Origin: Pocillopora damicornis
Lineage: Eukaryota
DNA: 64,000 bases
Reading direction: 5' to 3'
Assembly: GCF_003704095.1 (NCBI RefSeq)
Contig: NW_020847208.1
Span: forward strand, 186,001-250,000
Part shown: positions 1 through 37,793 of the stretch, one piece after another
How the letters are laid out: each line of letters begins with the position of its first letter
How positions within the stretch are numbered: position 1 is the stretch's first letter
The notes under the pieces: model-generated
What the model was told of the DNA's origin: nothing
The model's database searches: none
What the model saw: the letters and a program-made list of their open reading frames with translations, nothing else
Made by a program: the position numbers and the translations under genes

Positions 1-599
1 GAGAAAGAGCTAGTTCATCCTTTTCCCCTAAGATGAGAACGATCGGGAACTAAAATCTACCCCAGCAAAAACTTAACATCTAGAGAGTCTACTTTATTTA
101 ATAAACAACCAAAATTTGTCGATAAACTTGTCCCGTTGCCAAGATTAGAATATCTCTTAAACTTCATGCTTGGCTTGTGCAATTTTCAAGTCGTGTACAC
201 CAGATGATTTACCTTTTAGAAGTTTTTCTTTGACAAGACCCACTGTTTAAAAACTAGAAAGACTTTTTTTTCAAATTGGTCTTGAATGTGAAGGATAACC
301 TTAAAATTTTCGATTAGAAATAGTCAAAATGAACCTCATGAGGAAAGTTTACAAGAGTAAAAGAAACCTGGTGTAGCAGTAAGTGGGTTACATCGGCACT
401 CAAATCACTTCTTCTGCTTTAAAATCTACACAGAACATTCAGGCACCCTTACAGCTTGTCGAGCCCCGACACTTTGTTGGAATGTTGCGAAAAAAAAGAA
501 AAACATTCGGGGATTCATATAAAAGATTGTTCGTATTCAGTGTCTATGTAACTTCTGATGGAATGTATAGTAAAGTATGCAACACATATTGACCATTAC

Positions 600-3500: not shown

Positions 3501-6500
3501 CTGGGACTTCTAGTTCAGAAATTCGGGAAGCGTATTTCTCTTTCATTTATTTGAATATATGTATTCATAGTGATCAACGTAGAGACAACTTCTGGGGCTA
3601 AACGGATAACACACGCAAACTCATTAAACGTCAAACATCAGGGCTACAGATAATAAGAGTAACCTTGTGTTGGTCCAACGCTTTTTTCGTGGTCTGTAAG
3701 TCCATTGATTCTTTGTCCGACTGTCCTGCACCGTACTCGATGTCAAATAAATCTCGATCAACGGCGTCTAATTTCCTCTTCAGGTAGTCCACAAAGTTGA
3801 TTGAGCCAGCTGTGGAGCTGTTGTGAATGAGAAGATCAAGTATACGCATTTTGAATCATACCTTCATTAGGAAAAATCCCCCACAACTTCTCCGAAATAT
3901 CGTTTAATCTATTGAGTTATGGCTTTGCTTACCAAGGTGCATATGATCTCCCTATAATACTGTAAAATTGGAATAAACAAATAACAACAGCAACAATGAC
4001 TGCTTCTACTTTGATTTGTTAGTTTCATTCTCATTATAAAATACTATCTATCTCGGCATGGTCTTTGCAAGATTACAGTTAAGTTTGCATCATTAGAAAT
4101 TACGTTGTAAAGTAAAATATTAAATTAGGTGCTTTGTTAGGTTTAGTTTGTAATCTCAAATTTTGCAGAAAGAAAGGAATTTATTGGCTGTGTAAAAAAG
4201 ATAATCCGTGACCAGTGTTTCCACTCGTGTTTCAGGAAAGAAGAAAAGCCATTATTTCTTACTCATTTTATTCTAAGACCTTGGGGATTTAAATCATATC
4301 GTCTTGTAGACTTCTCTTCATGCTTACAAGACTTGGGTACAATCAGTGGTTCTATCAATCGCAGACAGGTTTCGAATATCTCAACACCTGATCAGGAAAA
4401 CTCGGATTAGAAAAAGTTTAAGAAAATGTCTTTTTTACAAATGATCTTTTTCTTTGATGCGATCTGTACTTGACTCTCATCGATCTTAACTATCGATAAA
4501 AGTTTCATAGGAGGGACCAGCAGAAAAAAAAATTAATCGCCATAGAAGAGAAACTGATAAATCAAGAAAGAGAACGGATGGAAAAAATTGTAACGGAGGT
4601 CATCCTAGATCGTTACAGATAGCGATCAAGAGGTTAGATTTAAGTTGCAGGATCAGAATTAATAAATGATAATCTCACCAAATGATAGTATTTGCCTTCG
4701 ATTCAAAGATGATCCACATGCATTAGTGTTCAATTAGTAATGCGTGTTTCAATGGATGTAATTTGGTGAGAAAATTGAAACAAAATCGCTCCTTACCCGA
4801 CGTTATTTTCTCTTTGTCCTCCCAAATTGATCTGAATTTGGGTCAGGTATCTATAAACACAACGTCAGCTTCGCAGGTTGAGATTTGTACTTGTATTGGA
4901 ACTGGACAATGCTTTTTGTTCCCTCAAACTTTTGACTTGACTCTTCTCCAATTTCAAGAACAAAAGTAATCTCACCCATAGCTTAATTCTCGCAATGCAG
5001 CAATGGGCTAATCTTAGCATTTTCGTTTACTTTAATTCGGATATTGAAGCAGCCGGCCTTTTTGGAATCCTTAGGCGTGTACATGTTGTATTTTTATGAC
5101 ATTCCTGGGACGCAAGATTGACCTCGCAATTTTTAAGGAAAGGAGAACGGAAGCCTAGAGAGAAGGCCTTCATTAAATAGAGTAGTTGAGAAAGTAGAAT
5201 ATGTGGCTTTTATTTAACGTAGTACCAAACGATAGGGCGATATTGCGTACCTTCTACGTTATACCGCAGTTTTACGCTGTCGCTTTGCAAAATTAATGTT
5301 TCTTTACCTGGGAGGACTGGACTCATCCTTGTCATATCTAAAATAATGAACCAGGCTAGCATCAGAAGACTGTTCGCCATCATCTTCAGTGCTAACGGAG
5401 AGCCAAGACGCCCGTCCATCGGGTTCTGTTTTCTTTGGATTTTCCTCACCAGAGATACGTGCAGTAGATACCAACAAAACCTCTCTGGTTTTATTTGTTC
5501 TGCCGTCAGGCTAAGGGGCGTACAATTGAATGACATTAGTTCCCGATACTTATTGCGAAGTGCAAATAACAAAGGGGCCTCGTAATTTGTAACGAATGTT
5601 TTATTAGGCTGTCTTGGTTTTCTTTATGATTATTCAATTACGTACCAGTGTTGTGTTTTCGTGGAGCGCCTCTCCCTTTCTATCTTTCTCAGGAGTAGCT
5701 GCGACCTTGTTGGAGCCATCACCTTCTTTTGCATCAATCTCGGCGTCACTTTTACCACTTCTCTCTCTTTCTTGTTCATCCTCTACCGTGCCAATTGTCT
5801 TTTTCACTATCTCATCAACAACTGTCTCTTCAGTTTCTATGTTCACAACTGGAGCTCGCTCTGTCTGTAAATTTAATTGAGATTCAAACATAAGGCTGCT
5901 CCAGTTAGAAACAAGAAAAATCTTAAATATTTGGTCATTCTATTATTATTATGACTTAATAGCAAACTGGAGATGGAGTATGATACCTTATTTGTGCTGT
6001 AACGCGACCTTTTTTTGTAATCACGAAACTGAGGAGACTCGATTTAATGCCGACTGACTATTCTTGATAAGGATATTTCAAGTCGACATCATTTTTTGTC
6101 TGAACATATTTTAAGATTCAAATCTGATATCTTTTGAAAAGGGCCATGGTAGTGTTCCCTTTACTAGGGACTAATGTCATGAACGTCTGTTTCTTAAGTT
6201 CACTGCGGCGGTGTATCTCATGTTATCAACTATTTACTTTGTCGTCAACTAAACATTTTAGCTGCCCACCAATGCAGCATATATCTTTGATCATTTACCC
6301 TCTTCTCTACTGTATAGGTAATACGCTTCTCTGAGTCGCTTTTGACATCGCCAGGTACCACCTATTAGAGGAATGTAGGTTTTAGTTTTCAGTTGTGATG
6401 TATCTTTATGGTAATGATAAACCCTTCTCTTCCTTTCAACACTCAAATCTCTCTATTTCAAAGAAACTTCAAAATTACCTCTTTATGGTTTTCATGCGTT

Positions 6501-9500
6501 TGACCATTCTGAACCATGCTGATTAATTTATCCACTCTGGCAGAATCATCTTCGCTACTTTGAGACGATAACTATATGGGAAAGAAACGATCATTTATTT
6601 TGTTTGTAGGACTTTTGATCCTGTTGGGATTAACAAACGACTACTTTATTTAACCACAGAATATAAGCTTATATCCATTACCTAGAACTTGTTAAAATAA
6701 AGCCATACCAGAAAGATTCCTTACTTTGTCCTAACCGGAGAACGTCTGTTTTAAGATATCACAAGCCAAAATGCATTCATTTATCTTGTACCGAAGATAA
6801 GCTCAAGAGCAAGATTTTTTCATTCTGCTTTATCATTATCTGCACTTTTATTGGACAGTTTTCTGCGTAAATCTTTTCTCGTAAATCACTGCTGGAGAAG
6901 TGTCGTCGATGTGTGTACAATGGGAATGTCTTTAACGAACAATCAATCGAAAGCATGCTCGTGTAAATGCACAAACGAGTATATACCATGTTAGTGCTGG
7001 AAGTGGATGTTACGTGACTATCTGATGTGACATTTCTGGTGGCGACCTTGTACTCGTATGATTCATTCCATGACATTTGAGGTGACGATGTGAACGTTAG
7101 AGGTTCGTCTTTGAGCTCCTGTAATAGTGAAATAATTCATCAAATGATGATAAAGACGAAATTGTTTGTTATCAATCTCCTTCTGAAACCTTAACTTAGA
7201 AGGCAATTTCAAGCCATCACTACTTTTGAGGATGTCATTACACAATTCCGTTGCCCAAAGGTTGTCCAAAATTCGTTTTGCTCCTCGACCGCTAAAGCAA
7301 AGCAAAGATGACTTCTTAGTTTAGTTCACTTTTAGGAGCTGCCGAGAACCACACATAAGCAATACAGGGTCTAAGGGTCATTTTGGTCATATGCTTTTGC
7401 CCGAGTGTCGGTATTATATGCATTTCTAAATTTTCCTATCCGGTGATGTAGCAAATATTCACGTTATCCTCGTTCTAATCGGCGGTTAGGAGCAAATCAA
7501 ACAAACCCAAATAAAACCAGACCACACCATACTACATTAAGTCATCTCCTCGTAACAAGCATTTAAAATTTGAATTACAGCGTATGAAAAGAGGCAGACT
7601 AGTAGGATGTTGATGCATCACTCGATGCACACAGTTCACTGGCGACACCGCAATTTATGTTCGTAACTTTTTTACTTCACTGGTTTGTCAAAAACGAATG
7701 TTCGTTGGACGGAATGGAATGTTCAACCGATTCGTAGTACAGGGTTGGTTCTACCGAGTTTCCCAGGGAGCTGGGAAAAGAAGTGATCTAAATATTACCA
7801 GAAAGAACTCCCCCCTAGGAATAAGGCCTGCAAGAGTAATGCAATCTACCAGCTTAAATCTATCGAATTTTCTTATCAATACCTTAGAGTCTGGACTTGA
7901 GGCTCTCGATGAATTTCTGGATGAACTGCCCGAGGGTTTTCGAAACGGTGACACAACAAAACCTTTTCGCTGAAAACAAAAAAAGTGAATGTCATTAACT
8001 TTGGCAGATCGGCCTTTGAGCATTTTACTAAGTCACTCCCTAAGATCATAAGCCTAACATGGAGGAAAATTACATCAACTTTTCACAAGAGATTATAAAC
8101 TCAGATTATCTTATCTTTCATCATCCTGTACTTTTAACTATTGAACGACTGTAAAATTTAGCATCACATAATTGACTGCAGACTAATAAATTAAGATGAG
8201 AGTGATCTTCCCAGTAACGAACATGCACTTACTGCTTGAAAATATAGCCTAAAAAAATCACCACTGCTTTACTAGTGTTTATTGGAGCGAGGATCACTTT
8301 CATCTTCATTTTAATTAATGTCAGCATTATTAGCGTTGTACGATTTTGAGTATAATTGTTATCATCACGAAACTCTACTTCGCAGCTTTTATTTGAAACA
8401 CTTGGGCGGTGTTAGAGGGGCAGTGTTCCGCGAACAAAACTGAACGAACTCGATGGACAGTCAGGTTACGGCTTGCAAAAAAGATCGGTTGCGACATAGA
8501 CTGGTATCACGAGAGGGAAAATAAGAACTGAATCATCGTACCCCTTGTATCTGAATCGATGAAGGGAAACCAGTCACATGAAGAACTCGTTCATTTCCCA
8601 CAGATTGGTTTTCATAGAAGACACTATCATTCTTTCCTTGATGAGTAGTGCTTGTCGTTCTGACATCATAAGTTGTAGCACGCGAACTTGACGTTTCATA
8701 CCGTGTGGAAAAGGTCTGTACTTTGTATTCCTGTAAAAGGAAGTCCAGAAATTAAAACCCGTCTGATACCTTATTTGTTTGCTTAATTTTTGGCAGATAA
8801 CGAATAACATTTTTATGCATGTATACTCACCGTTTTTACTTCAGATGATGTTTGTTTCCTGAATGTTTCAAAACTCTCGACCGATAATGCTCCGCTCCTC
8901 GTGAATTGATACAAATATGATAAGAAAAGCGTTATCATATTTTTATCTGGTGTTTCGATTCCAAAATCTGTAAGAATTTAGATAAAAAATTAAATTACTT
9001 ATCTATCACAGAGAATATACTGGACGTTATCGGTCAAAAACTAAACAGCAAAACCCCACTTCTAGACAAACTGAGTAAAACTAGCTTTTGGTAAATTACT
9101 TACATGTGGAAAACATTTTGTGGCTTAAAATACAAAAGGAGTTTGCCCATACGAAATTCTCATTGAAAGATTTTCTTGCATAGGCTTAAGGCTAGAGTAC
9201 TTGCATTATAGATGCCAAGTAATAACTTTACCTTCCAAGTCAAAAATGGGAGGTACTCCATAATTTTCAGTGGCCAGGTTAAGGGCATTTGCAAGACGTT
9301 TCTCCCCGTCACTTGCTGATATTGCATCAAAGTTAAAGTGAGATGGGCTATAAGATGACAGAAAACAAGCAACGATTACTAATATCTAAAGCAGACCTAT
9401 TATAGAGACGCAATCTTGCGATCGTTGAACACTGCCATGAAGATGAGGAATTTCTCTCATATTTGGTTTCTTCAGTTAAAGATATGAGGTGTTTTGGCCA

Positions 9501-12500
9501 GGTCGTAAGTAAAATATACTTATGTTCCACTCGCAGATTGGGCACCAAGGCGACGAGATAAGTGACCCTCGATAACGTTTAATGCTATGCATAAGTATGT
9601 TTACCATATCAGCCTGAATGGATACCAACACGAAAGGCTTACTTGAAAGAGTGAAGGAGCGCATTAAATGCTAAACCATCCATCCAGCTCGTGGTTAGGT
9701 TAGTCACTTCTACTTTACTTTTGTATCTGTTGGAGATCAAAGGAGTAAAGCAAAGCTATGTTAACTCATCATTAGAATTAGTCAACCTTATTGATTGCGA
9801 ATTCGTGAGAGATACAAACCCTTTCAGCTGATATTGACACCATCCTAGAAGCTTTTGATCGACTCCATAATCTGTTTGAGAGGGTTGAATCGCCTTGATT
9901 ACCTTTTCAAGGGACATAGTTTGAAACAAAAATTATTTAAGAGATAACGTAACAAAAATCATTACGATGTGGGCCGAAACGTTTATAGTGATAACGAACT
10001 TTGGAAAGCAGAAAAGAATAAGGAAAAAATAACTGGGAAAGAAGGTCAAGAAAGAAAAGACTTATACGGCTTCGAAGGAGGACACTGAAAGCTGAAAAAA
10101 TATTAAATTATCAGAACTATGTTAGACATAAAAAAATAAGTTGCCTCTGCATCCAAATCAAAATTTTAACAACCTGAAATTGAAAGATGATACTCCACAC
10201 CAAGCTTATCGTAGCCCGCTGAACACCGGATACAATCTCGCTGGCTGTAACGCTTCCTGTTCGGACCTAGGAATAAACAAGACATTAGTTGCGCATAACT
10301 AAACATAGCATTGGTGATTGACTTCCTGTTTTTCTCAGTGCTCAGGTGATCATGGAGCTGTGCAATCTCTGATTGGTCGATACAGGGCTTCATTACAATT
10401 AACAGCTATTTGACGAATTCAGTAACGCTATTATTTGACAACATTCATTATTAAGCTTGACTCAGTTGCCTCAGGTTTGGCTCAAATTGTCTTGTCTGAA
10501 GAGATTTATCTTCTTATTTCAATTACACACGAGTCAATTCGAGGAGCAAGAAATGACAGTCATGGAATAACTCGATCGAATATTTCAAGCTTGTTTTAGG
10601 ATGCATACCTTGTTTCTAGCCAAGTGTCCCATAGCCTCCTGGATACTTTTAATGTTAGCTATGCGGCTGTTTTTCGTGTCTCTCAAAACTTTGATTCCAA
10701 GAAGTACTTCAACAAGTGTGAGTAAAACTTTCCCATCTTTCGATCCGTTGACAAGGTTAGAGACTCTTACCGGAGGATTCGCCTGTAGAAAATGTTTCGT
10801 GAAGTTTAGAATCATCAAGGGTAGCTAAACTGTTTTTGGTGTTGTGAACAAAAACAAAATTAAATTGACGGAAAGAAAACTGAGATTATTAACATGATAG
10901 AGAGGATATATACCGTAAGAAAAAAGTAAATAGTTCAAAATCTTAGCTTTACCTTGAATGATTGGGAAACTCACCCAAAAGCTATACATTAGTGAAACTA
11001 ATTCGGCTTAAAGCTGGACTCTTATATCTACTTTCCTAGTTTTTTTCTTTATAGCCCTACCACTCCAAAGCCTCCACATGTACTGAGTATGTCCACTAAA
11101 AGCAAAAATGTTAAAGTGCTATACTGGTCAAAGAGAGAAAGCAATCAAGTCGAATTCAATCGAGCAAAAAAGAGAGAATCTTAAATCTAAGACGACCTTC
11201 AACTATTACCCTCTGACGCCATAAATCCCAAGGTCATGGCGGCTTACACTCTTTCAAGTGACTCTTACTTTTGCTAATTGAAGATTAATCCATCGAGTAA
11301 AAACCCTCTCATGCCTGTCCAATTGACTGTCTGTGGAGAGAGCAAAATTCCTTTAGTGTAACCAGTCATGATCATAATTTATACCGGTCTGATGTAAAAA
11401 TAAGCGAGCACCTTCTCTCAGGACACCAGGAATCGAGACTCTCACCTGCTTGGACTTCTCGTTCCTAGCTCATCCCGCATCACGCTGATTGATTCTTTTT
11501 CAAAAAGTCAGATGTTTGAGCGAGGGTGCTAATATTGCCGAGATGGTCACAATATGCATAATGACAAGAAGATTTTTAAATAGTGTTTATTAGACATGAT
11601 AAAAAAGGCGTTTTGCATAGTTGAAGATCACGGTCGTTTGAAGACTCCCCCTCATCTAATTGAATTTGCAACGATGCCCTTTTTTCTTGAATCCACAGCT
11701 TTTTCCGAACTTCAAGGGCGAGTAAAAACTCTTGGAAACCGAAGTGTGCATATGTCCATTAAGGATTGCTATTAAACCTTGTTGCATAAAAATTTGATTG
11801 GGTAATTGTAACGCAAAGCAATCGTTCGTGCTTGCATCAATGTACCGAAAATCTCTTAATAATTCGATTTTTTCCGAGACGTTTTTTCCCCTTTTGGAGG
11901 CCTGTTGACAATGAAATGCTAAACAAAGATTCAGTTTATATAATTTACTGTTGACGGTGAGAAAGAGATTACTTAGGGTCTTAGTGGATAAATTTGGTAC
12001 GCGAAGTGTCGCTTCAGTTGTCTCGTACAGCTGAAGCTCTCGAAAGAACAAAAGAAATTGTTTGGGCGCGTTAAACCCGACAAAGAAGCGGTATCAACCG
12101 CCAAAAAAAATATGCATATTAATGCGCGTTATGAGCTTGCAAAGCACGTAAATCGACTGAATTGCACATTTCTATACGTTGAAGTTTTCAGTAATAAGTT
12201 TGCAAACAAACTTATGTTTAGCTGCGATGTAGCCTAGAATAATTTGTCTAAATCCACTTAACATAAGTTTCTTGATTACGCACCATTGGTTTCTGCTCTC
12301 TGAGTACGTATGTGCTCTACGAAGCAACACTTAAAAGTCCTACTGATACGTTCACTGCTTTTTAGGCTATAGTCGGATATAATCCTTAATAATTGGCATT
12401 CCACCTTCTTGGGTGAGAGCTTGAGATGCTGCTGTTATCTGCTGTTATCGCATGTAAATTATTACAATTAATGGGTATTCAAAACAAACGATATTCTTTA

Positions 12501-14937: not shown

Positions 14938-15052
14938 ATGGAAGCAAAGAAAGTCGCTGCTGTTGCCCGACCCAAGCTTAAATTGTTTCAGCGAGCTGCT
15001 AAAGATATCAAAGCTGGAGTTCGACACACGTCAGCAATTGCCCACTCACGGA
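14938..15052 (+). CDS. Candidate alternative first coding exon (1a) of dystrophin-like paralog 2
   Basis: ATG-initiated open frame MEAKKVAAVARPKLKLFQRAAKDIKAGVRHTSAIAHSR ending at a strong GTAAGT donor in phase 1, compatible with the 62-nt exon at 21576. Confidence 0.6.
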
Positions 15053-17028
15053 GTAAGTACACAGGTATAGAATGTATATAATTTACATACTTTGAATTTG
15101 GACTGGACGTTCGCAATTAGAGGGCGTCTCTTAACTTAAACGGGTGTCAAGTTAAGATCCTTCCCTATAAACTCTATCTCTGTTACTCACCAGTAGCCTT
15201 CAAATTTAATGATGAGATGGATGTTGCGAAGGGTACTAAGATGTATTGTGATGGTAGCCCAGACTTTAGTGTCATGCAGTGGTTGTTGATTTTAAATTCT
15301 TTAAGATTGCTATTTTTCTGGGCTAACAAAATTCATCAGAATAGAACTCGTTTCATATTCTTTTTCATTAGTAAATATATTACAAAAAAAGAAAAAAAAT
15401 ACATATTTGCTTCTAGTGCACAGTAAGCTCTGCTACAGTTTATACTACGTCAATGCATATCATTCTGTCCATGACCCGACGTTACAAAATGTTACAACTC
15501 GTCTTCAATTTTTTCCGAGTTTCGGCCGAAAATGCTGATCGCATACGGGTAAACTGTTCGGCGGGTCAAACACCTGTAACTTCTTTCAAAATAAATGCAT
15601 TCAACAATTTAACAAAGGATAAGAAAACAGGCTCTGGAAGACCAACAAACAAACGAGTAGATAAACAGCAAAGATTATCAAACAAACCAACAAGGCAGGG
15701 TCAAAAGGATTTACTTTTCGCTGCTTATTTTCAAGTGGTTATATTGACAAAAAGCTGGATGTTTTGGTCTGTTTTAAAGCAAACGTTAATCAACGATATG
15801 TATACCAGCTACATTTGTATAACATATTCATGTTGGCACTCAGTCTCTCAGCTGATCTGTGTGGAACTCCTTCAGTTCATCCTCTTTGGGTGAAAATACA
15901 TAGCAACTGATTTATTTCTCTATGAGATAGCATAAGGCAAGCTGATTGGTGTATTTCTGTATATTAAGTTTTTGGCAATTCTTAAAAATGTATATAGCTC
16001 TTTATCTTCATTTTTCTAACCAAACCATGAAAAAATCTGTCAATTTCACTTGGTAATTCTACGAGCACATTCAACATTTTTGGAATCGTAAAAATGTGGA
16101 ATTTCCACAATATATATTCCAATGGAAAAGAGTTGGTTGAATGATTTAAATTTCAGATATCACAGTTCTCAGTTAGGAACTTATTTAAGGAAATTTTCCT
16201 GTCAGTTTAGTACTTCGGTTCAACAGACTTTCATAAAAATATCTTCATTACTAAAAATAGAGGCCTTTTTTAGTTACTACCGCGGTTACAAAGCCATCAG
16301 ACTTTTCTTTTGTATTGACTGATATCTCCATGTTTGCTCAGCCTGTTGAAACTTTCTGTCAAATCAGGGTCAATAACTAACCTTATACTTCAACTTTTCG
16401 AACAAATCCACTAAACCCACTTAATATCTGTAAACTAAACAGACGAAGTTTTTTAGAAAGTTATTCTGTACATGGTATTTCGACGGCAAAATTTACCAAA
16501 ATTACATCTTATTTCGTAATCATAATGAAGTGGACACTTCGATGTTTCATTTAAAAGCGCAAGGTTGTTTCCAACAATATATCAACGTACTAATGTAAAT
16601 GATGTTTATTTTGCCTTCTCGGTTTACAAACGTAGCTGCCGATCCCATGAAAATTTTCACTGAATATTTCCAACGATACCTTTTTGCTTTGCAGCCTCAA
16701 TAAAAGTTTTGCCCAGCTGCCTTTTTAACTAAAAATTGTAATGAGCTTTTCAAAGTTTCTTCATAAGATTTCGATTCTGAAGAAGTCGAGTGTTACTAGA
16801 GAGAAAAAAAAAGCAGTCAGTTACTTTTCTTGCAGTACGTACGCTAGCATTTCAAAGAAAATGATTGTTTTAACTCGGCGCTGTATTACGGTATCTAGAG
16901 AACCGTCTGATGGCCCAAATATGTCATTGTGCAGGGATAATCTTTCTAGAATCAAATTTTCGACATAAATTATTTTGACAGTGGACTAAGTGTTTTCTCC
17001 GGGAATCGATAAGACTTTTGCTTCAAAG

Positions 17029-20000
17029 ATGGCGTCTGAAAACACATCTCGCAAGTCATCTTTAAGAAAATTTCAAGCAGCAGCGACAACCGTTCAGCGG
17101 AATACACAGTACACTAGGAAATTTACTCAGTTGGTTGGTAAGTAGGTAGCGAGTTGAACAAAATGATTTCCATACTTAGAGACACTAATCAAAGCAAATA
17201 TTCAATTATATCAACTGGCTACAGGTGAAACTATAACAAATATATTACTCGGGTGTTATTCGACGATTTAAGCAATTTTTTTGGTTTAACATTGTGTTCA
17301 CTATAATGATTTATATAACATGATGTCGAAAGCTAGCAATAATAAGGAAAAATCGTAACCTGTTTGCGTAGTGATCCAGCAAAGCACAAATAAATTTGAT
17401 CCTCATGAAACACATTCAATTTACTCATGTGTGCTTCGACTGTAAAGTTGAAAAGAAGAAGGGAAAACATAATCATCTTCTCAGATATTATGAGCGTTTA
17501 AGGAAAAAATGGTCGAAAATTGAGAATTAGAGCACGAGTGAATCATTATACGTGACCGTTCATGCAAAAAAAAGTGCTGATTCGTATGTTTATTATAATC
17601 ATAAATCATGAATTTTGGCGGGAAACTAGCTGAGTGCATATTACATGGCCAAGTTCGGCCCAAAAATCTAACAATAATAAAATACAAATAAAAAAGCCTT
17701 GAGACTCTTTTGGTGTATCGCCAATTCGGAAAACTGAGAAGGAATACTGGAGCCATTAGTACAATGTGCCCATGCTATGGGCAGATGAAGTGACAACACG
17801 TCAGACCTATGTAAATGTATCTCTAGTTAGGGTCTACTGCTGTCTTCATATTTCAACTGTAAATTGTTTTAACTTCTTGAGTACAAAAGGCCAAAAATAA
17901 ATGCAAATAACACATGGTTTGCAAATTTTGTCACAGCATTTCTCAGCCAAGCTCTCGTGAATAATACTAAAAGAACATCCATTTAGTAATTGCGCGTGAG
18001 TAATAGTACCGGTCTTATCGCTTTTAATTTGCAGTCCTGAGAAGGCTACAGCTAATGTTGGTTTTTTTTTCTAGAGGAAATCCTCCGTATATCTTTTGCA
18101 AAATAGTCTTTGCTTCACTGAGCCTCTGTGTGGCCCTTTTTGTTCATATGGAACGAATCATAACAAATTTGGAGAAACTTGAACTTGTGCAGAGTACAAG
18201 TCTCGTAAACACACAAAGAGCTTTCCGTATAGTCTTTGGTATAAAGGGAAAGGAAGTTTGCAAAAATCGTTATTATGTTTCAAAATTTTTTCTGTTGAAT
18301 GATCTCGTAACGGATAGCAATATTGCACAAATGTTCTCCCAGAGACATTAGTGTTGTGTAGCCATCTAATACACTTGTTGGGGTTTTTATTAGCTATTCC
18401 CTCCGACAATTAGATTTACAAGATTCCAAGGTTCTTGCTCGTCAAAAAGAAACAATCCGTTCTCGTGGACAACAACTTCTCTCCAAGACGTAAACTCAGT
18501 TCTAATATATAAAAGCTATGCGTGTGTCAATAAACACGCCTTTTGATAAGATAAGCAGTATTCGGTTTCATGCTAGGTTCTAATCAAAAATTAACATAAA
18601 TGTTCGCTGTGTTTAGTTCTTAAGGTACGCAAGTTTCAATTCCTAAGGTTCAATTCTTAAGGTTCGCAAGGTTCAGTTCTGGGATTGCTTTCTTCACAAC
18701 ACGTCGCGTTTTTTTCTAATCACAATTAGATAATACGCTTCTAGGATGTTTATATCTGTTCTCACTACTCTTTTGTTCAAAATGTGCAATTATAGCAGAA
18801 TCGGGTCCTTGCAAGTCTGAAAACGTGAGGTCATTCACCAAATAGCCAACCACTTCAATCACCTCCACGGACCGGAATCGGACCTAACCGACCACTCACT
18901 TGCTCTGTTTACCTGGCATCAATTTTTCTTTTTTAGTGATAATCTGACGTGAACGCTTAATTTTCCCAAAATATTGTCTGTTTGTTGTAAGGTGTTAATC
19001 ATTATAACATGCAACATTAAAGCTGTTAGAGAACAAAGTCACTCATAGATTTCGCGAAAACGCACAAAACGGATCTTCACGTGCAAGCATTCATATTCAA
19101 ATCAGTTGACCCTTTGGGCCTGGGGGTCATCTCAAAGACAAGTCTTGAATATAAATTTGCATACCTACACTAAATTGAACAACACTATTTGAGCAGAATC
19201 TTGGAGAGCTGACCTCGCTTTTAAACATGAACGGCCAAGAAGCTGAAGTCGCTCGCCAAAACTCCATGAAAATCAAGAGAATGATTTCGGACCGCTCAGG
19301 TAAAGACAATCTTGAAGCTTTTTTCATCTGCGTCATGCTATCTCTGCAGTAGCTCTCGGAAAATGTTTATAAGATTTTACCCTCTGTGATTCGTTCAATC
19401 AGCGCAATTTGACGCCCCTGACACAATTAGCGCAACTTTTCGCTCCTTCCCTGAAGTTCCAGTGCTCTTATAGACAAGTTTGCTCATTGCTTTCAGCACT
19501 CGCATTTAGAAATTCAGGGCTTGATGTTCTTAATCTGGGCAAAAAAGATCACAACTTGCAATTCTTATAAGTTGTAAACAATCAAGGACACATTACAATG
19601 CGTATCTCATCATTCTTTATTATTTCCTAACTTTTAATTCACAGGCTCGTTGCCTTTACGTCAACAAGTTTTAACGAGAAGGCTCCTGCTAAGTTGTTAA
19701 ACTTTAAACAACATTTCACAATTAAGGACCAATAACTTTGTGGTGTTCAAGAGGGAAAAATAATAAGATCTATTTAGTACTTTGAAACTTGACACTCTTG
19801 TGTTCTTTACCATATTCAACCTTAAATTTAAATAAGTTTGCTACATCCTTTAAAACTAGTACTGAACATTTAAAGGATCAAAGGATGTGAGCATGTTTTC
19901 AGATTTCAACCGAAATGTTTACTGGGTAGACAGTTGACTCAGGTATTCATAGAGCAGTAATTAGCACAAATTTTCGCCGTGTTTAACTGTCTACGCTGCA

Positions 20001-23000
20001 AGATATGCATGGAATGCTACGTATGGCTATTTCGATAAACAAATCTTATCAGGTGGTTAAATTTTACTCATAAAACGTTACCAGCTAAAGAAGAAGCGAG
20101 TAAATCAAAGCTTCACCTTTTCTTGGAACGGTATTCTTGATGGCTGTATATGTAGATTTTAATTTGGACAAATATGGATTCACTTCATCAATATATACGA
20201 ATATTAAAATACTAACCTGTGTAATGAAGTGAGACGACTGTTCATCTAATTACTCTTGATATTTGCATTTTTACTCAATGAAGGGTTTAAAAGAAAAGCA
20301 AATCAATCGAAAATCATTTTACAAGGCAAATAGAAAAAAAAGGATTCGATATAGTCTGTTAATAAGGAGGAAAACGATCATGAAGATTTGTCAAAACTGT
20401 TAACGTAAATCTAAATTTGCTTTTAGTTGAAAAATATTTCAGTGTGTGTAGATCTAAAATCGTCGCCGACGAAAATTTTTTTATCAAAAAACGCTAGAAT
20501 ACTGACGGAAACTTATCATAACATATTTGACGTAACATCATTCCAGTTCTGTAAATTTTCCGTGTTTGCCCTGAATGGAATAATCACAATAATGAAAGGG
20601 GCACTTGAGACGACTTAACTCTGGTTTCTTTCCATTATTCTATCATGGCGTAAGCTGATCTACTTGAAAATAAAATAATGTTAACCTGGAGTGAAAATTA
20701 AGAGATAACATCGGTTATATTTAGAAAGTGATACTGAAAATCAAGGAAGTTCAACAACAACTCTTTAAATCTTAATAATATCATAATAACGGTATGAAGG
20801 GGCGATATGTTCTGTTAATGGAAAAATTAACTTCTAGATTTTTCTAACACTTTGCGACTTCCCATAAAGACAATTTGTTATCAATGCAATGTCTTCTAGT
20901 CTCCAATCGATATTGGACGTAATCACAATTATCTTATTAAGCAAAAGTCTTTTTTCATGTTTGTTTGCCAAAAAAAAGAAGAACACTATAACGTTGAGCT
21001 TTTACCTTTCTACTTTCCTATTATGACGAGGCCTTCTTTATGTAAAGTTTGGATAGCGATGGAAACGCGGAGGCTGGGATATCGAGGTCTTACAAAAAAT
21101 CTCACTTGACATTCGCGTGGAGAATAGAATGGTAAATTCGAGATTTTCGTAAAGGGCACGCCTACTAAATAATGCGTAGGACATCCTTCTTTTTCTTAAT
21201 GAAACACAGACTCAAATACGTCTTCTAACAGACAAAGAGACTGCGAACATAAAAGTTAATTTAAACAAAATTCTTTGGAAAAAAGCATATTTCAAATTAG
21301 GTCATGAGCAAATTTAAAAATTAAATGAAGCAACGCAGCTTTCTTGAATGATAAAACAAACAAACAAACAGACGAAAGCAAACACAAAAGAGAAAACAAA
21401 AAGCAAAGTCAAAAACCAAGCAAAAAACAAATAAACGAAACATTTCTTAAAAAAACACACACACACACACGCACACATTCACTAGCACTTTTTTAATGCG
21501 ACCCAATATCGTTGGGACCATCTTAGAATTCCAAAATCCTAATATTGATATCTTAAATAACTGCTTTTACTGAAGGTGAGAGGGAAACACTTCATAGGAA
21601 AACTTTTACAAAATGGGTAAACGCAAGACTCGCTCAGGTAAGGCAAACTCTATCTTACTTTCAGAAATATATTTGCTTGTTGAAATAAATTCAATTTTCA
21701 CTGAGCTAGCCTCTAGTTATTGTATCATTTTGTTTGAGCACATTGAGTAAAATGTCGCAAGGATGCTGTGGCAAACTTGCGTTCAAATTGCTTGAATTAA
21801 CTCAAGTGTAGGAAAATGTAATGTCAAAGACGGCACTGCATGTAGCTGTGAATCTGAGTTGACGCGAAGACGGATTTTCTCAGCCAGATTCGAAGTGTAG
21901 TGGGCCACAGTCTGCTAATTATTTTTCACTATATTTCATTGTATTTACTTACCATGCTCTCACCCTTATCTTCCCACAGCACGATCCTCCCATGGAAATC
22001 AAAGATGTTGTGATAGATTTTATGGACGGGAAGATGTTGCTGAACATGATGGAGGTTCTTTGTAACACAAAATTGGTAAACGCAAGCGAAAGTTGTCTGT
22101 CTTTAGGATCTAACCCGTTTAAAATCACCACTCAATTCGTCAAATAGTATGACTAAGATTTGTTATTGGCAGTTCATTTTCAGGAAATTTTATGAATTTT
22201 GAAAAATTCTGTCATCACCCTTGTTGTTCCACGCTTGATACAGTTTTCTATAGATTTTTGTAACAGTCTAGCTGACAAAGGTCAAAAGAAGGACTGAAAT
22301 ATATTTTACACTTCTTGATCGTGTAGTCTAATCTTCCGGATGAGGGTAGTCCTGAGAGGGACTTTTGTCGGTAGTGGGGACGGACGTTTCGAAATTCGAC
22401 AACCTAAGGGAATGTCATCGTCAGCGTCCAGTGAGAAGTTTTTGTCAGTCGATTGTTGTAAGTCCGGTTCGTGTACATTGATTGTTCAGTTTGGCCAGGA
22501 TGTTATTAGCTGTGAGACTCAAGTGGTGTACTTCGATCGTGATTGGTCAGTTTTGATCCGTCGGAAATAATTTTTGACAAACCAAAACTGAGTCTTAGTG
22601 GCTACGACCTGACCTCAGTATACGCTTTTGTTTCAATGTTGCTGTTTCAGAAAAAAGAGAAAGGAAACTTGCGTGTCCATAAGTTGAACAATGTTGAACA
22701 AGCTATGAAATTGCTGGAGAAGCAGAAGGTAACGAGACCGTGCATTTCTTTTGTTTATGCTCTTGCTCCTTTTCAGTCTAGTTCTTATCTGTGAGTCATT
22801 AACGTATTTAGCTCATGATGTGCTGCAACAGCTGTGATAGGTTCGCTGGAAAGGGTAGTTGGAGCATTTCTGCCAAGCTGCGTTTTCTTCCTTTTTTTAA
22901 TGTGACAGTCAGTTGGCCATTGCATGTACGTGAACTACTAACTTCACTATGATATTATGATTCTTAAGGTTAAACTGGTTGGAATCAATGCCTTCGACAT

Positions 23001-26000
23001 TGTGGATGGAAAACCTCGTGTAATTCTTGGTCTTATGTGGAGTGTAATTCTTAGATTCCAAGTAAGAACCTCATATGCAACTTAATATTACCACTGAATC
23101 ACTTAGTAGATAGAATGTGAGAGCAGGTTACATTGACTTTTTTTTTAGTCCGTTGTAAGAGCTAAGTACGCTTTATGCGTTATTTCTTCATCAAGATATT
23201 ACGAATATTTGCATAATGAAGAAGACTGTGGGAATGACAAATATGGCTTATTTTGAATCACCGGTAGCATAGTAGTTGTGGAAATGTGGAGGTCACCTCT
23301 GGTTTAATCGATAATGATGAGGGCAATTAATTAATTGTTCCCAAGAGGATTGCTCGTTTCTAACTAAGCCTGAGGAAAGCCTGCACAATCTTATCTAAGA
23401 AAGGTAAAGTGCATGTCAGATGGATAATAATTGATTAGTTTTTGAAGGTCGGTAACACGCGTGCCTTCCTAAAAACAGAAAGAAAGTAATAAATTTTATT
23501 TTTGACTTGTTAGGTCCAAGAGGTTATGCAGGAAACGGTAACGGAGGAGACAGCGAAATCATTCAATGTCGAAAAGAAACTTCTTGATTGGTGCAAAGAA
23601 CGCTTGAAAGGGTGAGTAGGATGCAATTGAACAAGTTCCTTGTATATTCTCAGTAATCCTCGATGTTTTTAAACCTTTTCTTTTTAACTAAACGATCTTT
23701 TCGAATTTAGGTATGAGGAATACGTCACTATCTCTGATTTTTCTTCAAGCTGGAGGGATGGCCTGGCATTCAACGCTCTTGTTCATTCATACGGGTACGA
23801 AAAAATTGTGATGCGACTTAATCAACACACACATAAAAAAACAATTACTTTGTATCTGGAAATAACGAAATTTACTGTTCTCTCAGACCTGGATTGTTTG
23901 ACTTTAATGCCATCGCGCAGTCATCAACTCGAACCAGACTGGACAACTCCTTTAAGATGGCAGAGAAGCACTTCGGAGTTCCACGCTACTTAGACTCGAC
24001 AGGTTTGTGATGTTTTCTGAAAGTTCCGCGTGGGCCTTTCCTACTAGTGTCGTCTTTTTGTGCGAAGCTTGCGATATGAAATCGGCGTGGTGATATGGAT
24101 CATTTCGCTGCAAAATTTGAACGTAAGGCCTGGTTCAACCCTAGAGGGTTCGAATCTTATAAAAAGAACAAACAAACAAAAAACGGTTGAAATTCTTTAC
24201 TTCATGTCACACTCGCGATGCAATGAAATTTATTGTAACGTAAACTGTAACATCTTATCATTGAAAAGTAGCCTTCTTGGCCAAAAAAACTTGTTTTGAA
24301 GTTTTAGATTTAAAGTAAGGACATTCAAAAATATATTGTTTGGTTTACTTATTAACTGATTGAACGATATTGTTTTATCAAAAGGCTAAAAACCTTTTGT
24401 GAATGATATCATTCCTTACGGTTACCTAGACGATAGGTTGACTCAAAGTAGGAATACATTTAGTGAGTTAGTTGATTGAATCGATGTCATAAATTAAAAG
24501 AAATGTAATCACAAACTGTAATCTCTTACCTGTCAGCATGTTAGCCTGTAATAGTTTTAAAACTTCACAGATATTGACGTTGAAAAGCCGGACAAGAAGC
24601 TAATTATCATGTACTTAACTGAGATGTATAACTATCTTGAGGGAAACAAGGCCAAAGAAAGGGTAAGAGGAAAGAGAATTATTAGAAGATCGAATTTCTT
24701 TCTCGGGAAGGTGGTAAAACAAAGTAACACTTAAAATCTCAGGCTTAAATTGGCTGTTTGATATATTATCTTTAATTTGCAGAACGTTTCGGTAATGATG
24801 GAGAATCCTTGCATAGTCGATAACGTGGAAGCTGTGGAGGGAGCCTTGAACGACAGCTTTGATAATTTGGACTCTAAACCAGCCTTCAGGTATGGTTACG
24901 AATACACCCTATGATGAAATTGAGGGAAGAGAAAAACAATATTTGGAAACTTGCAGACTGAAGCAGGACATAAAAAGCGCAGTTGTAACATATTGGTTGA
25001 TAAATCTAACTGACGAAAGATGCCGAAGGAGTGGGAAAAACAAAAACACCAGCCTCCATTTCCATGCTCTCCACTAGCAGAGGATACAGTAGGTGTATAA
25101 AGAAAGAAGCGACTTTGATAAACTTTGGCTACTAGCGAGGAGATCTTTGCCGAATAGTTGCTTTCAATCTTCCTCCCATGGGAACATTCCGATATTTAAG
25201 ACATTCACTTCAAAATTTAATCGCACAAAATGTTTTCTACTATAACTAATAACTAATAGTTTCGTTTTCTTAGCCAATCAGAACACGATAAAGCAGTTGC
25301 AGATCTTGGCAAGAAATTGAATGAGGTGGAAAGTGGATTGTCTGACGCGGAGCATACCAAACCAGTTTACGATGAAAATGATTCAGTTAATTTGGAGGAA
25401 GTAACTAAACAGCTGGAGGAACAAAAGGTTGAAAAATTGTTTTCCTGTAAGGCATGATTTGCTGACCATTCATCGTGGCATCTCTCTCGTAAAGGTTCTT
25501 AAGATGGAGAGATGAGCTATCTATTTTTAGTAACTAATCCTAGAGTTTCATCACATCAGTTATTGTTGTAGGGCTATCTGAGTTTGAGTAGTAACGTAAT
25601 GGACGCCTTTTTGCCAAAACTGGAAATGTTGAAGGTGCTTTTCCTCAACAATAACTAAAGATAAATCCTTGTACAGATGAGGGTCTTAAAGGGGTTAACT
25701 TTAAGCTGTAGAAAGACCAAATAATTTAGCCATTAAACATACAAAATTATCGTATTATAACCATTAGTCGTCAAAAAAGTTATCCGTGAAAATGTTTCCC
25801 TCCTTAAATGTGTCATTTAGGTCAACCGTTAGCTGTAATATGGCCAAGATTTTAACCGTTGCCGCAATGCGATCACCCCATTGAGAACCTCACAGAAGTG
25901 AACTGTAATTTTTAACGAACTATTTTTTTTTGCTCATTCATACACAGAAATTTCGTCAAGACCTCGAGCCACTTAAGTCTCACACTTATGAAGTTTTGAA

Positions 26001-28783
26001 TGAAGGACGGTCCATGATAGGGGAAGGATACTTTGATTTAGGTGAAAAGGAGCACTTCCAAGACCGGATGGATAATGTCGATAAAAGGTTGCAAAACCTT
26101 CTAGAGCAATCTAAGAGAGATCAGGACAAGTGAGTTGTTTAGGGATATCATTTTTAGAACACACGAATGACATTGGTTATATATGTTTTACTGTTCATTA
26201 GAATTGATCGAAGGGCTGAGTTGACAGTTATTTTCGAAAACGATTAGGCAACACCACCTTGACATAGAATACGTTAGAAATGAATCAAACAAGCTAAATT
26301 TTTAACTCAGTTGTTTGTTGGTATTCTTTGCCATAGGCTTTCACAGCAGAGATCTGTTCTTTTGAAACAACAATTAAACAAAATGACCATATGGTTGAAA
26401 AAGGCCGAGCAAAAAAAAGACACAGGAGACGACATTGGCCCTACCTACGAAACTGTTAAAGAGCAGTTGGAGGAACATCAGGTAATTGTCAAATGTCATC
26501 GTGTTTCACGGTGGTATTCATATCCTTGCGAGATAGCAAATAACACTCCTGTACTCTTCTAGGAGTGTGTAACGTGGGAAAGAGTAAGGTATCGATAGTA
26601 AAGACAAGATCGCTGCTGGAAACACGTAATTTTGTTGATAGAAATATGTTGAGCATGTCGTTTCTTCATGACCTTAGAAATTTCAAGAGGGAGTTGGTGA
26701 CATGTCTTTAGTGGCTTCAGTACTAAGGAGTGATTTAACCGACCCAGATTTGGATGACAAAACTCGAGAACAAATCAAAAATGTGAACGAAAAGTGGGCG
26801 ACGGCCTGGAACTGGAGTGAGGATCGAAACCAGAAGCTAACCAAAGCAATGATCGATTGGCAGAAGTTTCGAGATGAAGAACTTATACTTCTAAACTGGC
26901 TCAGCCAGAAAGAAAAAACTCTCAAAGAAGTATCGAACACTGATGTTGCCGACGAACAACAAGTTAAGGAAAGCCTTGAACTTCTCGAGGTAAGGATTAC
27001 ACCTAGTTAAAAGTGTTCAATGGTAGTGCGATTTATGAACACCCAGTTGGTTTTTGAGAGATATGATTTTCCTTCGGAGGATACTCCTTTGCCACCAATT
27101 TTTCCTAACTTGTATTTCCTCTTCCCCAAGCAGCAAAATACTGAACGCGATTGTATCAGTCACCTGTTTACTTTGAAATAATTTTGGGAGTCAGTCCCTA
27201 GAGGTGTAAAATGCTACCCCATGAATAATGATCCAGTTTTATCAATTTTACGAATGTACCAACAGGCAACTCAAAAGGAGCTTGAGGAACAGGAGGAAAG
27301 ACTGCAAAGGCTCCGCCAACTGGGGAAAGACCTCATTGAGGATTCTGGTCGCGACGAAGAAACAACCAAGGAAATTGAAGCCCAGTTACAAGACTTTGAC
27401 GACTGCTGGAATCATGTTGCCAAGAGAGTCATTGATGAGAAAGAAAAGGTGCGTAAAACGTATATATTTTACTTATTGCTAGTCAGTCTTCTAATATTTT
27501 AGCCACATTGTGTGGAACCTTGTTGTACCTAGTTTAACCATGATGATGTGATCGCAACAACTCTGGGATTAAATCTCTTTGCCGGAGTTCCCCGATATCT
27601 CTACTGGTATTATCACAGATTTATTCAGAGTTCAGATGAAATTTTGCAGTTCACGTATCAGAGTTAGTTATAAGTTATTTGCACCTTCTGGAATCAACAG
27701 AAGGGCTAAGGAGATCATAGGGTAAAATTTCTATATTGTGAAAGGCACAACAACAGACGGATTAAACTAGCTATCTAAATTGGCCACGGTGAAAAAAAGG
27801 TTAATAAATGAACTCTAGTCGGGCACATGAGAAAAAATGCCCCGATTGATGGGGGTGAGTCACTATGTCCCCTCCCACCCACCCGCCGTTTACTTATTGA
27901 TCTATTTATATTCTCCTCCGCCTAGTTGATAAATACTCAAAACAAAATGAAGGAGATGTATGACCTAGTGGATTCTGTAAATCAGTGGGTGGATGACGGT
28001 CAAGCATTGATAAATGGATACAAAGAAGATTTGCCTTCTGACGAGCAAGAGAATCTTAAGAAAAGAGCTCAGGTACTTCACAAATTGTGTCACATTTCAT
28101 GCGAGGTACTTAATAGGATAACGACTCCTCACTCCTCACTCGATTATGCGGACTTACTTCTCTGGTTTAATTTTTTTTCACGAATACTAATTAGTCACAT
28201 TCGAGATCATCGAAAATTTTTTTCCCATCAAACAGAGAGGATGTACTGAAACATTATTGACGCTATGCTATTAACGCAGCTTCAAATAATGATAGATCAG
28301 AGACGTGCAACTTTGTAGCTACTTGAACTAGACCGATTTATCTTTGGCAAAAAAATATCTGAAACTTCGGAAATGGAATGCAAAAATAATCTCCAGCAGT
28401 TTTTGGACCGCTCTATCCATATTTTTTCCTTTTTGCTCTTTTCAAAGATGACTTTAAGCTTTAATTATTAATATCATCATTTTTTCTTTCACTATTATTT
28501 TTCCGATATTTACCTTTCTTCTTCGTTCTAGATTAAACTAGAGGAAAAGACAGCTATGCAAGTCAAAGTAGATCGTGTCAACCGGCTTGGAAAAGACGTA
28601 TGTGAAATTCTTGACGGACCTTCACAGAAAGCCGTCAAAGGAGAACTGCAACAATTCAATGACCGCTGGCAGGATGTGTGTGCAGCATTGGAAAGCTACA
28701 ACGACAAAGGATACCCAGATGTTAATGGAAATGAGTGCTGTATTGTCAGAATCATCAAAAGAAAGGTTAAATCTCTCTCATAG
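17029..28783 (+). CDS. Dystrophin/utrophin-like paralog 2, short form (~769 aa: CH1-CH2, short hinge, four spectrin repeats, Cys-Cys/basic C-terminus)
   Basis: Exons: 17029-17137 (alternatives 14938-15052, 19227-19299), 21576-21637 (ERETLHRKTFTKWVNARLAQ), 21980-22075, 22651-22728 (..LRVHKLNNVEQAM..), 22969-23061 (VKLVGINAFDIVDGKPRVILGLMWSVILRFQ), 23514-23611, 23711-23794 (DFSSSWRDGLAFNALVHSY), 23887-24002, 24571-24662 (DIDVEKPDKKLIIMYL), 24783-24889, 25274-25427, 25948-26129, 26337-26481, 26678-26989, 27266-27448, 27926-28072, 28532-28783 (stop). Total 2310 nt, in frame throughout. AATAAA at 29564-29569. Confidence 0.92.
19227..19299 (+). CDS. Candidate alternative first coding exon (1c) of dystrophin-like paralog 2
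   Basis: AAACATG start, MNGQEAEVARQNSMKIKRMISDRS, CAG|GTAAAG donor in phase 1, compatible with the exon at 21576. Confidence 0.5.
21455..21478. repeat. (CA)n microsatellite preceded by an A-rich (CAAA)n-like tract
   Basis: acacacacacacacacgcacaca seen directly. Confidence 0.8.
22310..22565 (-). mobile_element. Penelope-like element fragment with a degenerate hammerhead ribozyme core
   Basis: Minus strand of ~22380-22428 reads gacgCTGACGAtgacattcccttaggttgtcgaatttcGAAAcgtcc, i.e. a CUGANGA...GAAA core with an apparent insertion; lies in an intron of paralog 2. Confidence 0.45.
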
Positions 28784-29958
28784 AATGATAAAGAAAGCTA
28801 AAGCTAATGGATAGCTGCAGCAATTTAATCACATTAGGTTAGATTAAGAAAATTATATGGAGCATCATCGGATAGAATGTAAACTTGAACAACCGTAATG
28901 CAATTTTTCTCAGTGTGAAACAGATGTTAGTCAATTGAAAAATGCAGAAAATATACAGTAGCAAAATTCCGACAAAAATTTAGGAAAACGAATTACGGGA
29001 AAGGGGAAACGTGTTCTCTCAGACCTTCATCACGGGATGGACATGATGAGTCACTAGGAATGAAAAAGCTTTGTTCTAGCGCGTTTAGCCTCGTAGAGGA
29101 AAATCATTTAAATTTGTTCAAAAGTTTAAAAGGGTCAACGGGTGAAAAGGGCCTTCTTTCCCTGAACCGCATAATATAACATGGATAAACAGAACTCTGG
29201 GAAACGAAACTGTGACCCTGATTTGTTTTACCTTTCAACGACACTAAGATTCAAATGCATGTAGGCAGGGCTTCATAGTCATGTGTGAGGGAGTAAGTTG
29301 CAATGTCAGCTAATATAATCACAAGTGTCTCTGTCTCATTATACTGAAAGAGTTGTTTCAGTAAATGGATTCAAAAGATGTATAGATACGCCACGCATTT
29401 GTTTGTTTCTAATTAAATATGGGATAATAAGAATATACAGATGTATACGCCTTAAATGCTAAAATTGATTAATCTTATTGAAAACATCGCAGGGCCGCTG
29501 CACAGACAATTGCGTTAAAAGCATGGAGCTAATCAAACGGTTGTAACAATCCAATTTTGAGCGAATAAAAGGTTTCTTTATTGTATCATATATTCCATTT
29601 TTTTTCGAACTCTGTATTTTATCGTGCAAAACCTTAACCATGAGTATGTAAAGCATGTATACTCAAGGGTCGATGATGGCGCAGTCAAATGAAAAGTTTG
29701 GGATATTTACATATTTTCCTCCACACGATCTCATTTTTACTTAGAATGTGGGAAACAAATTTTTGTCCTGGACATATTTCCAGATCCCGAAAGATGCCTG
29801 CTAGTGAGCTCTAATCTGCGCTGCAGCACAAGCGGCTGAGCGCACGAGATTCGCGCAGGTGAGCGAAATCAAACCGCAACTGAAGTCGGTTTTGAAGAGT
29901 CTTTATTTGTTCAGGTTTTGACAAATACGTTACATACCGAGAATACAACAATAAATTC

Positions 29959-37760: not shown

Positions 37761-37793
<33 letters not shown>

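Follow-up and report, generated by a model that had tools for sequence, protein, structure and literature searches.

How a dystrophin without its dystroglycan-binding end might be held at a membrane is the question raised by a short gene, here called gene 2, on the forward strand of a 64,000-nucleotide stretch of the coral Pocillopora damicornis (contig NW_020847208.1, positions 186,001 to 250,000). This whole stretch is referred to as the window, and positions are counted from its first letter. A reading of the window made from its sequence only had proposed that a pair of cysteines with a polybasic tail, at 28700-28783, closes the short dystrophin and may take the place of dystroglycan binding as a lipid anchor. 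We find that the tail ends an expressed protein and belongs to a family of three paralogs in corals, two of which are also present in anemones. The alignments indicate that what is conserved is a single cysteine with the hydrophobic and basic residues behind it, and S-acylation of this segment is its probable, though by no means certain, use.

Terminal exon and dystrophin ancestry

In the frame of the last coding exon, 28700-28783 translates as N-D-K-G-Y-P...E-C-C-I-V-R-I-I-K-R-K-V-K-S-L-S-stop. It is the end of an 83-codon open frame that lies behind an AG acceptor at 28532 and closes with the stop codon at 28781-28783. When the exons of Table 1 are joined by their coordinates, a single open frame runs from the first CH domain to this stop. 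Transcript support came from four RNA-type runs, each of a different study (one run is assumed to be RNA), whose contigs were placed on 11500-31400. Gene 2 has at least 15 supported joints; 14 of the 15 listed are present in all four runs and one in three of them. The last joint, 28072/28532, was found in all four, and contigs pass from the 28532 exon without a break into the 3' untranslated region (UTR), as far as 29406-29643. In one run a loose end with poly(A) falls at 29585, a short way behind the poly(A)-signal hexamer at 29564. In addition, P0002, an independent transcript-assembly protein of 757 amino acids, is 100% identical over the last exon and has the same stop. The named proteins in the cluster of P0002 come from Pocillopora and Stylophora, which agrees with a pocilloporid origin of the window. 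The exon is thus spliced and polyadenylated and P0002 ends identically, which bears out the proposal that the Cys-Cys basic tail ends the short dystrophin: 28532-29585 is the true terminal exon of an expressed 757-amino-acid coral gene. A candidate exon, 25572-25634, was rejected: P0002 does not contain it and all four runs skip it. There is an allele at 28766, where three of the four runs have T for G; it changes V753 to Phe, the residue of most orthologs. At 26415-26418 all four runs disagree with the window at three of four bases, giving Lys in the window and Met in P0002 and orthologs, perhaps because a run of A was misassembled.

A Pfam scan of the gene 2 protein detected two CH domains and spectrin repeats, and no further domain above the cut-offs. 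Its architecture consists of a dystrophin actin-binding domain (ABD), repeats R1-R3, a fourth repeat and the tail. The closest solved relative is dystrophin (9c3c, E 2e-78), and snake, horseshoe-crab and crinoid dystrophins are collinear with P0002, without interruption, over their first 630-760 residues (29-32% identity). In single-repeat profiles, repeats a, b and c best match the first three repeats behind the ABD in most of six dystrophins and utrophins; in one there is no match for repeat a, and in one insect protein repeats b and c are off register. Repeat d, the fourth, has no clear counterpart among the six. The numbering R1-R3 follows the position behind the ABD and the domain limits of dystrophin.

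The dystroglycan-binding end is missing from this protein. WW, EF-hand and ZZ gave no Pfam match in P0002, P0011, P0166, P0185, P0015 or P0238; as a control, the same scan detects EF/ZZ, and mostly WW, in bilaterian dystrophins. The syntrophin- and dystrobrevin-binding C-terminal region is missing as well, the protein stopping about 24 residues past the last repeat. No transmembrane stretch was found near the C-terminus of gene 2 (best 19-residue hydropathy 0.13 within the last 60 residues), nor did Pfam detect KASH in gene 2, paralog 1, the giant paralog or the scanned anemone members. The cluster of WW, EF-hand and ZZ is given as the signature of the dystrophin/utrophin family (PMC1790709), and by the signature as worded there the gene 2 protein is dystrophin-derived and not a full family member.

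The ancestry was examined with a maximum likelihood tree of 41 selected actin-binding domains, in which some outgroup labels were inferred from tree position and Pfam and not from database names, and with a second tree of 161 sequences; the supports quoted are values recomputed per split. In the first tree the coral and anemone proteins of all three paralogs form a single clade (100/100). This clade joins the bilaterian dystrophins and utrophins with 98.5/100 in the 41-sequence tree and 0.987 in the 161-sequence tree. Nesprins and calmin are split off from the family and the dystrophins (99.3/100), and a split uniting the family with nesprins is absent from the tree. A nesprin ancestry was rejected because of this position outside the nesprin-calmin clade, and a transmembrane or KASH anchor because there is no KASH match and no hydrophobic 19-mer near the end. 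The canonical cnidarian dystrophin is not in the tree because none with WW, EF and ZZ was recognised among the sequence matches. In the larger tree P0039, a 468-amino-acid octocoral (Xenia) protein with four CH domains, sits on a long branch inside the family clade, a placement that may be due to long-branch attraction.

These data bear on the explanation that the tail is an artefact of annotation, with a longer canonical dystrophin read through into one of its introns, or else the decayed KASH or transmembrane anchor of a nesprin. Several automatic gene models do have other ends, and among the matches no cnidarian dystrophin with WW, EF and ZZ was recognised. Nevertheless, with a spliced and polyadenylated terminal exon, with some 35 kb downstream in the window occupied by other genes and free of matches to the three family proteins, with no hydrophobic stretch near the end, and with a tree and a rod register that are dystrophin-like and not nesprin-like, an artefact is hardly credible.

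Conservation and possible use of the tail

A search with the last exon gave ten matches, which include Oculina, Orbicella, Acropora and Porites. All ten carry the tail, in the pattern Cys-Cys, two hydrophobic residues, Arg, two hydrophobic residues, Lys-Arg-Lys. The same CC tail is present in the anemone orthologs of Actinostola (P0014) and Nematostella (P0238). Conservation in orthologs was the test set beforehand for the proposed anchor, and the tail survived it in stony corals and anemones. Of the 12 positions in 743-754, 7 do not vary among nine gene-2 orthologs. The adjoining repeat has 19 invariant positions in 108, the rod 94 in 436 and the ABD 77 in 233.

For comparison across paralogs, 22 sequences from all three were chosen and aligned, leaving out database models with odd ends. 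Cys743 is invariant in all 22, in a region where the paralogs are about 25-45% identical, and it lies 14-26 residues from the C-terminus across the aligned family. Of the 22, 13 have Cys at position 744 and 9 have Phe; six of the nine Phe sequences have another Cys five residues further. Lys or Arg occupies position 750 throughout, and Asp or Glu position 742 in 21 of 22. The terminal exon is contained in 15 of 28 metagenome loci, all of which keep the Cys and the basic tail (8 CC and 7 CF). These counts come from related sequences and hence are not independent observations. On the aligned sequences, the tail is under selection. Position 744 is shared between Cys and Phe, so that conservation rests not with the vicinal pair but with the first Cys and the hydrophobic-basic helix behind it. 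Thus the cysteine context emphasised at the outset holds for the first Cys and its hydrophobic-basic segment, whereas the second Cys is kept in just over half of the aligned sequences. One further metagenome locus (L027:3801-4070) encodes a divergent member with a Cys-Cys basic tail. It shares 35-48% of its residues with the three paralogs and may come from a different group of anthozoans or represent a fourth paralog.

A loose motif was also counted, defined as CC followed within 12 residues by at least four Lys or Arg and no Asp or Glu, inside the last 26 residues. Three of the window's 1220 stop-ended frames, the tail frame included, carry it, and so does one of 150 related actin-binding proteins, P0015, itself a family member. 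Conservation is the stronger argument than rarity, since the motif was defined after the tail had been seen. With the Cys pair 14-15 residues from the end, the tail of gene 2 is no CaaX box; CCIV is not terminal, as the sequence-only reading had noted, and prenylation is not predicted. It was rejected for the family too, as none of six proteins tested has a Cys four residues from the C-terminus.

The C-terminal fold was modelled on the last 175 residues of a close ortholog (P0003) with a 22-sequence alignment, giving a mean predicted local distance difference test (pLDDT) of 84. In this model the spectrin helices finish about 15 residues ahead of the second Cys; a linker with pLDDT below 50 follows, and a 10-residue helix, pLDDT near 50, starts from the second Cys and stands apart from the repeat. 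The full-length model is poor (mean pLDDT 64; CH domains and tail below 50). At E 0.001 or better, a fold search with the C-terminal model found nothing; its top rows were utrophin, dystrophin and spectrin repeats. An atlas search with the tail returned nothing at 0.9 or above, and with residues 620-757 generic spectrin clusters only. The cysteines are exposed in the model, conserved, and flanked by hydrophobic and basic residues, which is a context of the S-acylation type. From the first Cys to the end the net charge is +5 in gene 2 and +2 to +5 across the family, with 4-6 large hydrophobic residues.

A signal for S-acylation and membrane binding is the best reading of the tail, because an invariant thiol, a hydrophobic-basic helix and a free linker come together at the place where dystrophin attaches to the membrane. 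We consider it fairly probable that S-acylation and the basic helix anchor an actin tether to the membrane without dystroglycan, and both the acylation and the localisation are inferred. The tandem CH domain, judging from its homology, would bind F-actin, and the four spectrin repeats would form a short rod whose R1-R3 may contact anionic lipids themselves, as vertebrate data suggest. Behind the flexible linker, the short helix would adsorb to the acidic inner leaflet and offer Cys743, together with Cys744 in members that have it, to a zDHHC acyltransferase; the acylation would then lock the C-terminus into the bilayer, presumably in a reversible manner. The acylated tail would stand in, within this protein, for the WW/EF/ZZ grip on beta-dystroglycan, and the product of gene 2 would be a cytosolic, dystrophin-derived tether from actin to membrane. 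Phe in place of Cys744 is a membrane-compatible residue in the alignment, consistent with a membrane motif. In vertebrates R1-R3 of dystrophin is reported to bind sarcolemmal phospholipids (PMC9515174), and by analogy these repeats may share in the anchoring. Dystrophin repeats reportedly need no more than a palmitoylation motif to reach the muscle membrane (PMC6251231), and in NCX1 a Cys with an amphipathic helix on its C-terminal side is described as directing palmitoylation, by a signal that can be transplanted (PMC5481580).

Several observations weigh against an acylated membrane helix. The tail helix has a pLDDT of about 35-55 in both models, and because of this low confidence the tail may instead be packed or bound to a partner. 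The hydrophobic moment of the 11 residues from the first Cys is not above that of shuffled sequences (p 0.21-0.55, 25 sequences). For the 11 residues past the pair, a segment picked afterwards, it is borderline (p 0.056-0.077 in seven gene-2 sequences; 0.03-0.33 in seven others), and the cysteines sit about 130 degrees off the hydrophobic face of the helix. Cys161 and Cys611 of gene 2 are likewise invariant among orthologs, so an invariant Cys alone does not imply acylation. Some database models also deviate: two Acropora paralog-1 models stop four residues past the Cys without the basic run, a partial Porites model stops at once after it, a Pocillopora giant model of 4398 amino acids ends in unrelated sequence, and an older Nematostella model runs on differently past the tail position. 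These deviant models may be annotation errors.

The same weaknesses give some room to a protein-docking motif, for example for calmodulin, for the cytoplasmic face of a membrane protein or for the protein itself, with the Cys kept for packing. Upstream of the cysteines Tyr735 is conserved in 21 of 22 and Pro736 in 20 of 22 sequences, beyond the needs of a plain lipid anchor and a further point against one; short basic-hydrophobic helices are described as typical calmodulin targets (PMC7216078), and a tail helix of low confidence resembles motifs that fold upon binding. On the other hand, hydrophobic positions interchange I, L, F, M and V and basic positions K and R, yet the Cys is constant, which is the pattern of a physical-chemical membrane motif with a reactive thiol at its centre, and the tail matches no known family (its best atlas score, 0.89, is below threshold). 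We therefore regard docking as unlikely, though deserving of attention. A PDZ ligand is unlikely because the last four residues vary between paralogs. Binding to the membrane without any acyl group, through charge and hydrophobic insertion aided by R1-R3, would agree with the charge and the large hydrophobic residues of the family, with the exchange of Cys744 for Phe and with lipid binding by vertebrate R1-R3, but it leaves the invariance of Cys743 in 22 of 22 sequences and 15 of 15 terminal-exon loci unexplained, and is distinctly improbable. Finally, the basic run could be a nuclear localisation signal. The monopartite consensus is K-(K/R)-x-(K/R), which K750-R751-K752-x-K754 of gene 2 fits; position 754, however, is Lys in only 11 of 22 sequences and 752 is basic in 13 of 22, and in paralog 1 and the giant the pattern fails while the Cys is kept, so that this explanation is very doubtful.

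Three paralogs and the dystroglycan question

Gene 2 (14938-29585, forward strand) and paralog 1 (597-11331, reverse strand) lie head-to-head with about 3.6 kb between them. The last exon of paralog 1 is off the window, and its tail was read from the database protein P0166 (1045 amino acids, 99% identity over the query exon). P0166 ends with Asp-Asp-Cys-Phe and then a hydrophobic-basic run: the first Cys and the run expected in paralog 1 are kept, and CC is altered to CF. The paralog-1 search gave 15 matches, 11 with the CF tail, one an internal fragment, one that stops just past the Cys and two truncated Acropora models. Nematostella P0015 groups with paralog 1 (75.2/96) and keeps Cys-Cys and the basic run, with 11 further residues behind. 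The third paralog, outside the window, is a giant of 4234-4281 amino acids (P0185, 4281) labelled utrophin or dystonin-like in databases, which has the four-repeat module and the Cys-Cys basic tail at its very end. The tail is thus not confined to a short protein. Between the ABD and the terminal module there are about 40 residues in gene 2, about 350 in paralog 1 and about 3550 in the giant; as compared here, the three paralogs differ mainly in this spacer ahead of a common terminal module.

The rod of the giant was compared in 20 segments of 300 residues with 12 reference proteins. Nine segments best match the R1-R3 region of dystrophin or utrophin, three are MACF-like and two match other parts of dystrophin; four gave noise only and two no match at all. 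Scores were weak overall, and the pattern points to a rod re-elongated from R1-R2-like units, not to a retained dystrophin rod. P0185 also has a Lys/Glu/Arg-rich stretch of low complexity near residue 2700. The label "WW domain-containing" on a giant fragment (P0184) was rejected, being unsupported by Pfam or a WW pattern. Database records for gene 2, paralog 1 and the giant in P. verrucosa, and likewise for two Nematostella members, hint at an old linkage.

Does the tail replace dystroglycan binding? The WW/EF/ZZ region is described as necessary and sufficient for that binding (PMC10293626), and the gene 2 protein is without it, so the claim stands for the protein. It does not extend to the animals: dystroglycan and dystrophin are listed among the entries of Hydra, Nematostella and Acropora digitifera (PMC4582122), and cnidarians are reported to possess a complete dystrophin (PMC10293626). 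As reported there, these systems are present, and therefore the family is most likely a parallel linker and not a substitute for the dystroglycan complex. A 2023 review states that invertebrates are without a dystrophin paralog (PMC10293626); in contrast, corals have three dystrophin-derived genes without the dystroglycan-binding end, two of which are also in anemones.

A wider scenario is conceivable, with doubt slightly outweighing belief: hexacorallians would have a second, dystroglycan-free dystrophin system. A duplicate would have kept the ABD and the lipid-binding R1-R3 and given up the end that binds dystroglycan and syntrophin, with a reversible S-acyl anchor in its stead. It would then have diverged into three tethers that reach to different distances, their spacers having about 40, 350 and 3550 residues; in the longest, a rod exceeding that of dystrophin would have arisen largely by duplication of R1-R2-like units and not by retention of R4-R24. 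If true, these proteins are natural, long-selected "micro-dystrophins" that test whether coupling actin to the bilayer is by itself a viable dystrophin function. Work on muscular dystrophy and micro-dystrophin design still asks how much direct rod-lipid binding contributes relative to the link with dystroglycan. Nematostella is genetically tractable, and its proteins P0238 and P0015, in which an ABD and R1-R3 are joined to a probable lipid anchor, make this question testable.

Layout of the locus and known systems

The features of the two genes are collected in Table 1. Two of the three alternative first exons of gene 2 encode related basic N-termini, with Phe-Gln-x-Ala after a Lys/Arg-Ser run, and these have counterparts in Oculina and Acropora isoforms. 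They could be regulatory, perhaps as a kinase or calmodulin site, judging from a resemblance to such sites. A short repeat element at about 14050-14230, where all four runs show numerous loose ends and a very high depth of contigs, is probably a dispersed repeat in the intergenic region. Downstream, at about 30300-38200 on both strands, open frames indicate clustered genes for small peptides that appear to be secreted, in which a Cys pattern recurs and Pro-rich linkers occur. At about 45400-63500 there are many single-exon von Willebrand A-like domains (47056-54259, reverse strand; 58611-63481, forward strand), and at 45487-45681 a short Cys-rich ShK-like frame; both were named by eye.

Table 1. 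Positions of gene 2, its C-terminal segment and paralog 1 in the window
Feature	Position	Strand	Remarks
Alternative first coding exon	14938..15057	+	N-terminus of database isoform P0198
Alternative first coding exon	17029..17142	+	N-terminus of database isoform P0197
Alternative first coding exon	19227..19299	+	used by P0002
Tandem CH actin-binding domain, gene 2	eight exons in 21576..24662	+	exon model, RNA joints, Pfam CH x2
CH-domain exons, gene 2	21576-21637, 21980-22075, 22651-22728, 22969-23061, 23514-23611, 23711-23794, 23887-24002, 24571-24662	+	
Short hinge, spectrin repeats matching dystrophin R1-R3, start of fourth repeat	24783..28072	+	exon model, RNA joints
Hinge and repeat exons, gene 2	24783-24889, 25274-25427, 25948-26129, 26337-26481, 26678-26989, 27266-27448, 27926-28072	+	
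Terminal exon, gene 2	28532..29585	+	latter half of fourth repeat, tail, 3' UTR, poly(A) signal 29564, poly(A) site ~29585
Linker, last spectrin repeat to cysteines	28700..28735	+	conserved Tyr-Pro, acidic residue ahead of Cys743; predicted flexible
Cys743-Cys744, candidate S-acylation sites	28736..28741	+	C743 = 28736-28738, C744 = 28739-28741
Hydrophobic-basic C-terminal segment (residues 745-757) and stop codon	28742..28783	+	short helix predicted, low confidence
Paralog 1, head-to-head with gene 2	597..11331	-	tblastn of P0166 on window; CH-CH, ~350-amino-acid Ser/Thr-rich spacer, same four-repeat module

Among known systems, dystrophin and utrophin of the Dp427 type are the nearest, with an ABD sister to that of the family and the first three repeats in register as R1-R3. 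They differ in that gene 2 has four repeats only and is without WW, EF-hand, ZZ and the syntrophin/dystrobrevin region, and in that the Cys-basic tail is absent from the dystrophins and utrophins among the matches. Nesprin-1/2 and calmin combine N-terminal CH-CH with a rod or spacer and a C-terminal transmembrane or KASH anchor. They are functional analogues, especially of the giant, if the putative anchor of the family is one; the transmembrane or KASH end is theirs, whereas the family has neither and lies outside their clade. Dpm234, an N-terminal dystrophin isoform made by intronic polyadenylation, is similarly described as an ABD with part of the rod and no dystroglycan-binding end (PMC7278912). 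It is, however, a dystrophin-gene transcript with an intron-derived end according to that source, while the family consists of separate genes with a dedicated spliced exon in corals and anemones.

The Cys739 signal of NCX1 resembles the tail in having a Cys followed directly by a hydrophobic-basic helical segment (PMC5481580; PMC7296346). NCX1 is unrelated, its helix is described as longer and aromatic-rich, and in the coral tail the amphipathy is borderline against shuffles and the acylation putative. Dystonin, with N-terminal myristoylation and palmitoylation sites (10.1101/122010), and ankyrin-G, palmitoylated at Cys70 (PMC3527982), are further cases of a cytoskeletal linker that lipid modification recruits, or is proposed to recruit, to the membrane; as described in these sources, their sites are N-terminal or internal, in other families, and none is C-terminal at the place of dystrophin's dystroglycan binding. 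In the open-access literature, with subscription journals mostly outside it, no description of the family or its tail was found among the top-ranked matches; the proteins are already in databases under automatic names, and the labels utrophin, dystonin and spectrin beta are corrected here. The principle of a lipid-anchored linker is not new, since N-terminal dystrophin isoforms, dystonin and ankyrin-G are known; what appears to be new is a dedicated, putative cysteine anchor at the C-terminus of dystrophin-derived genes.

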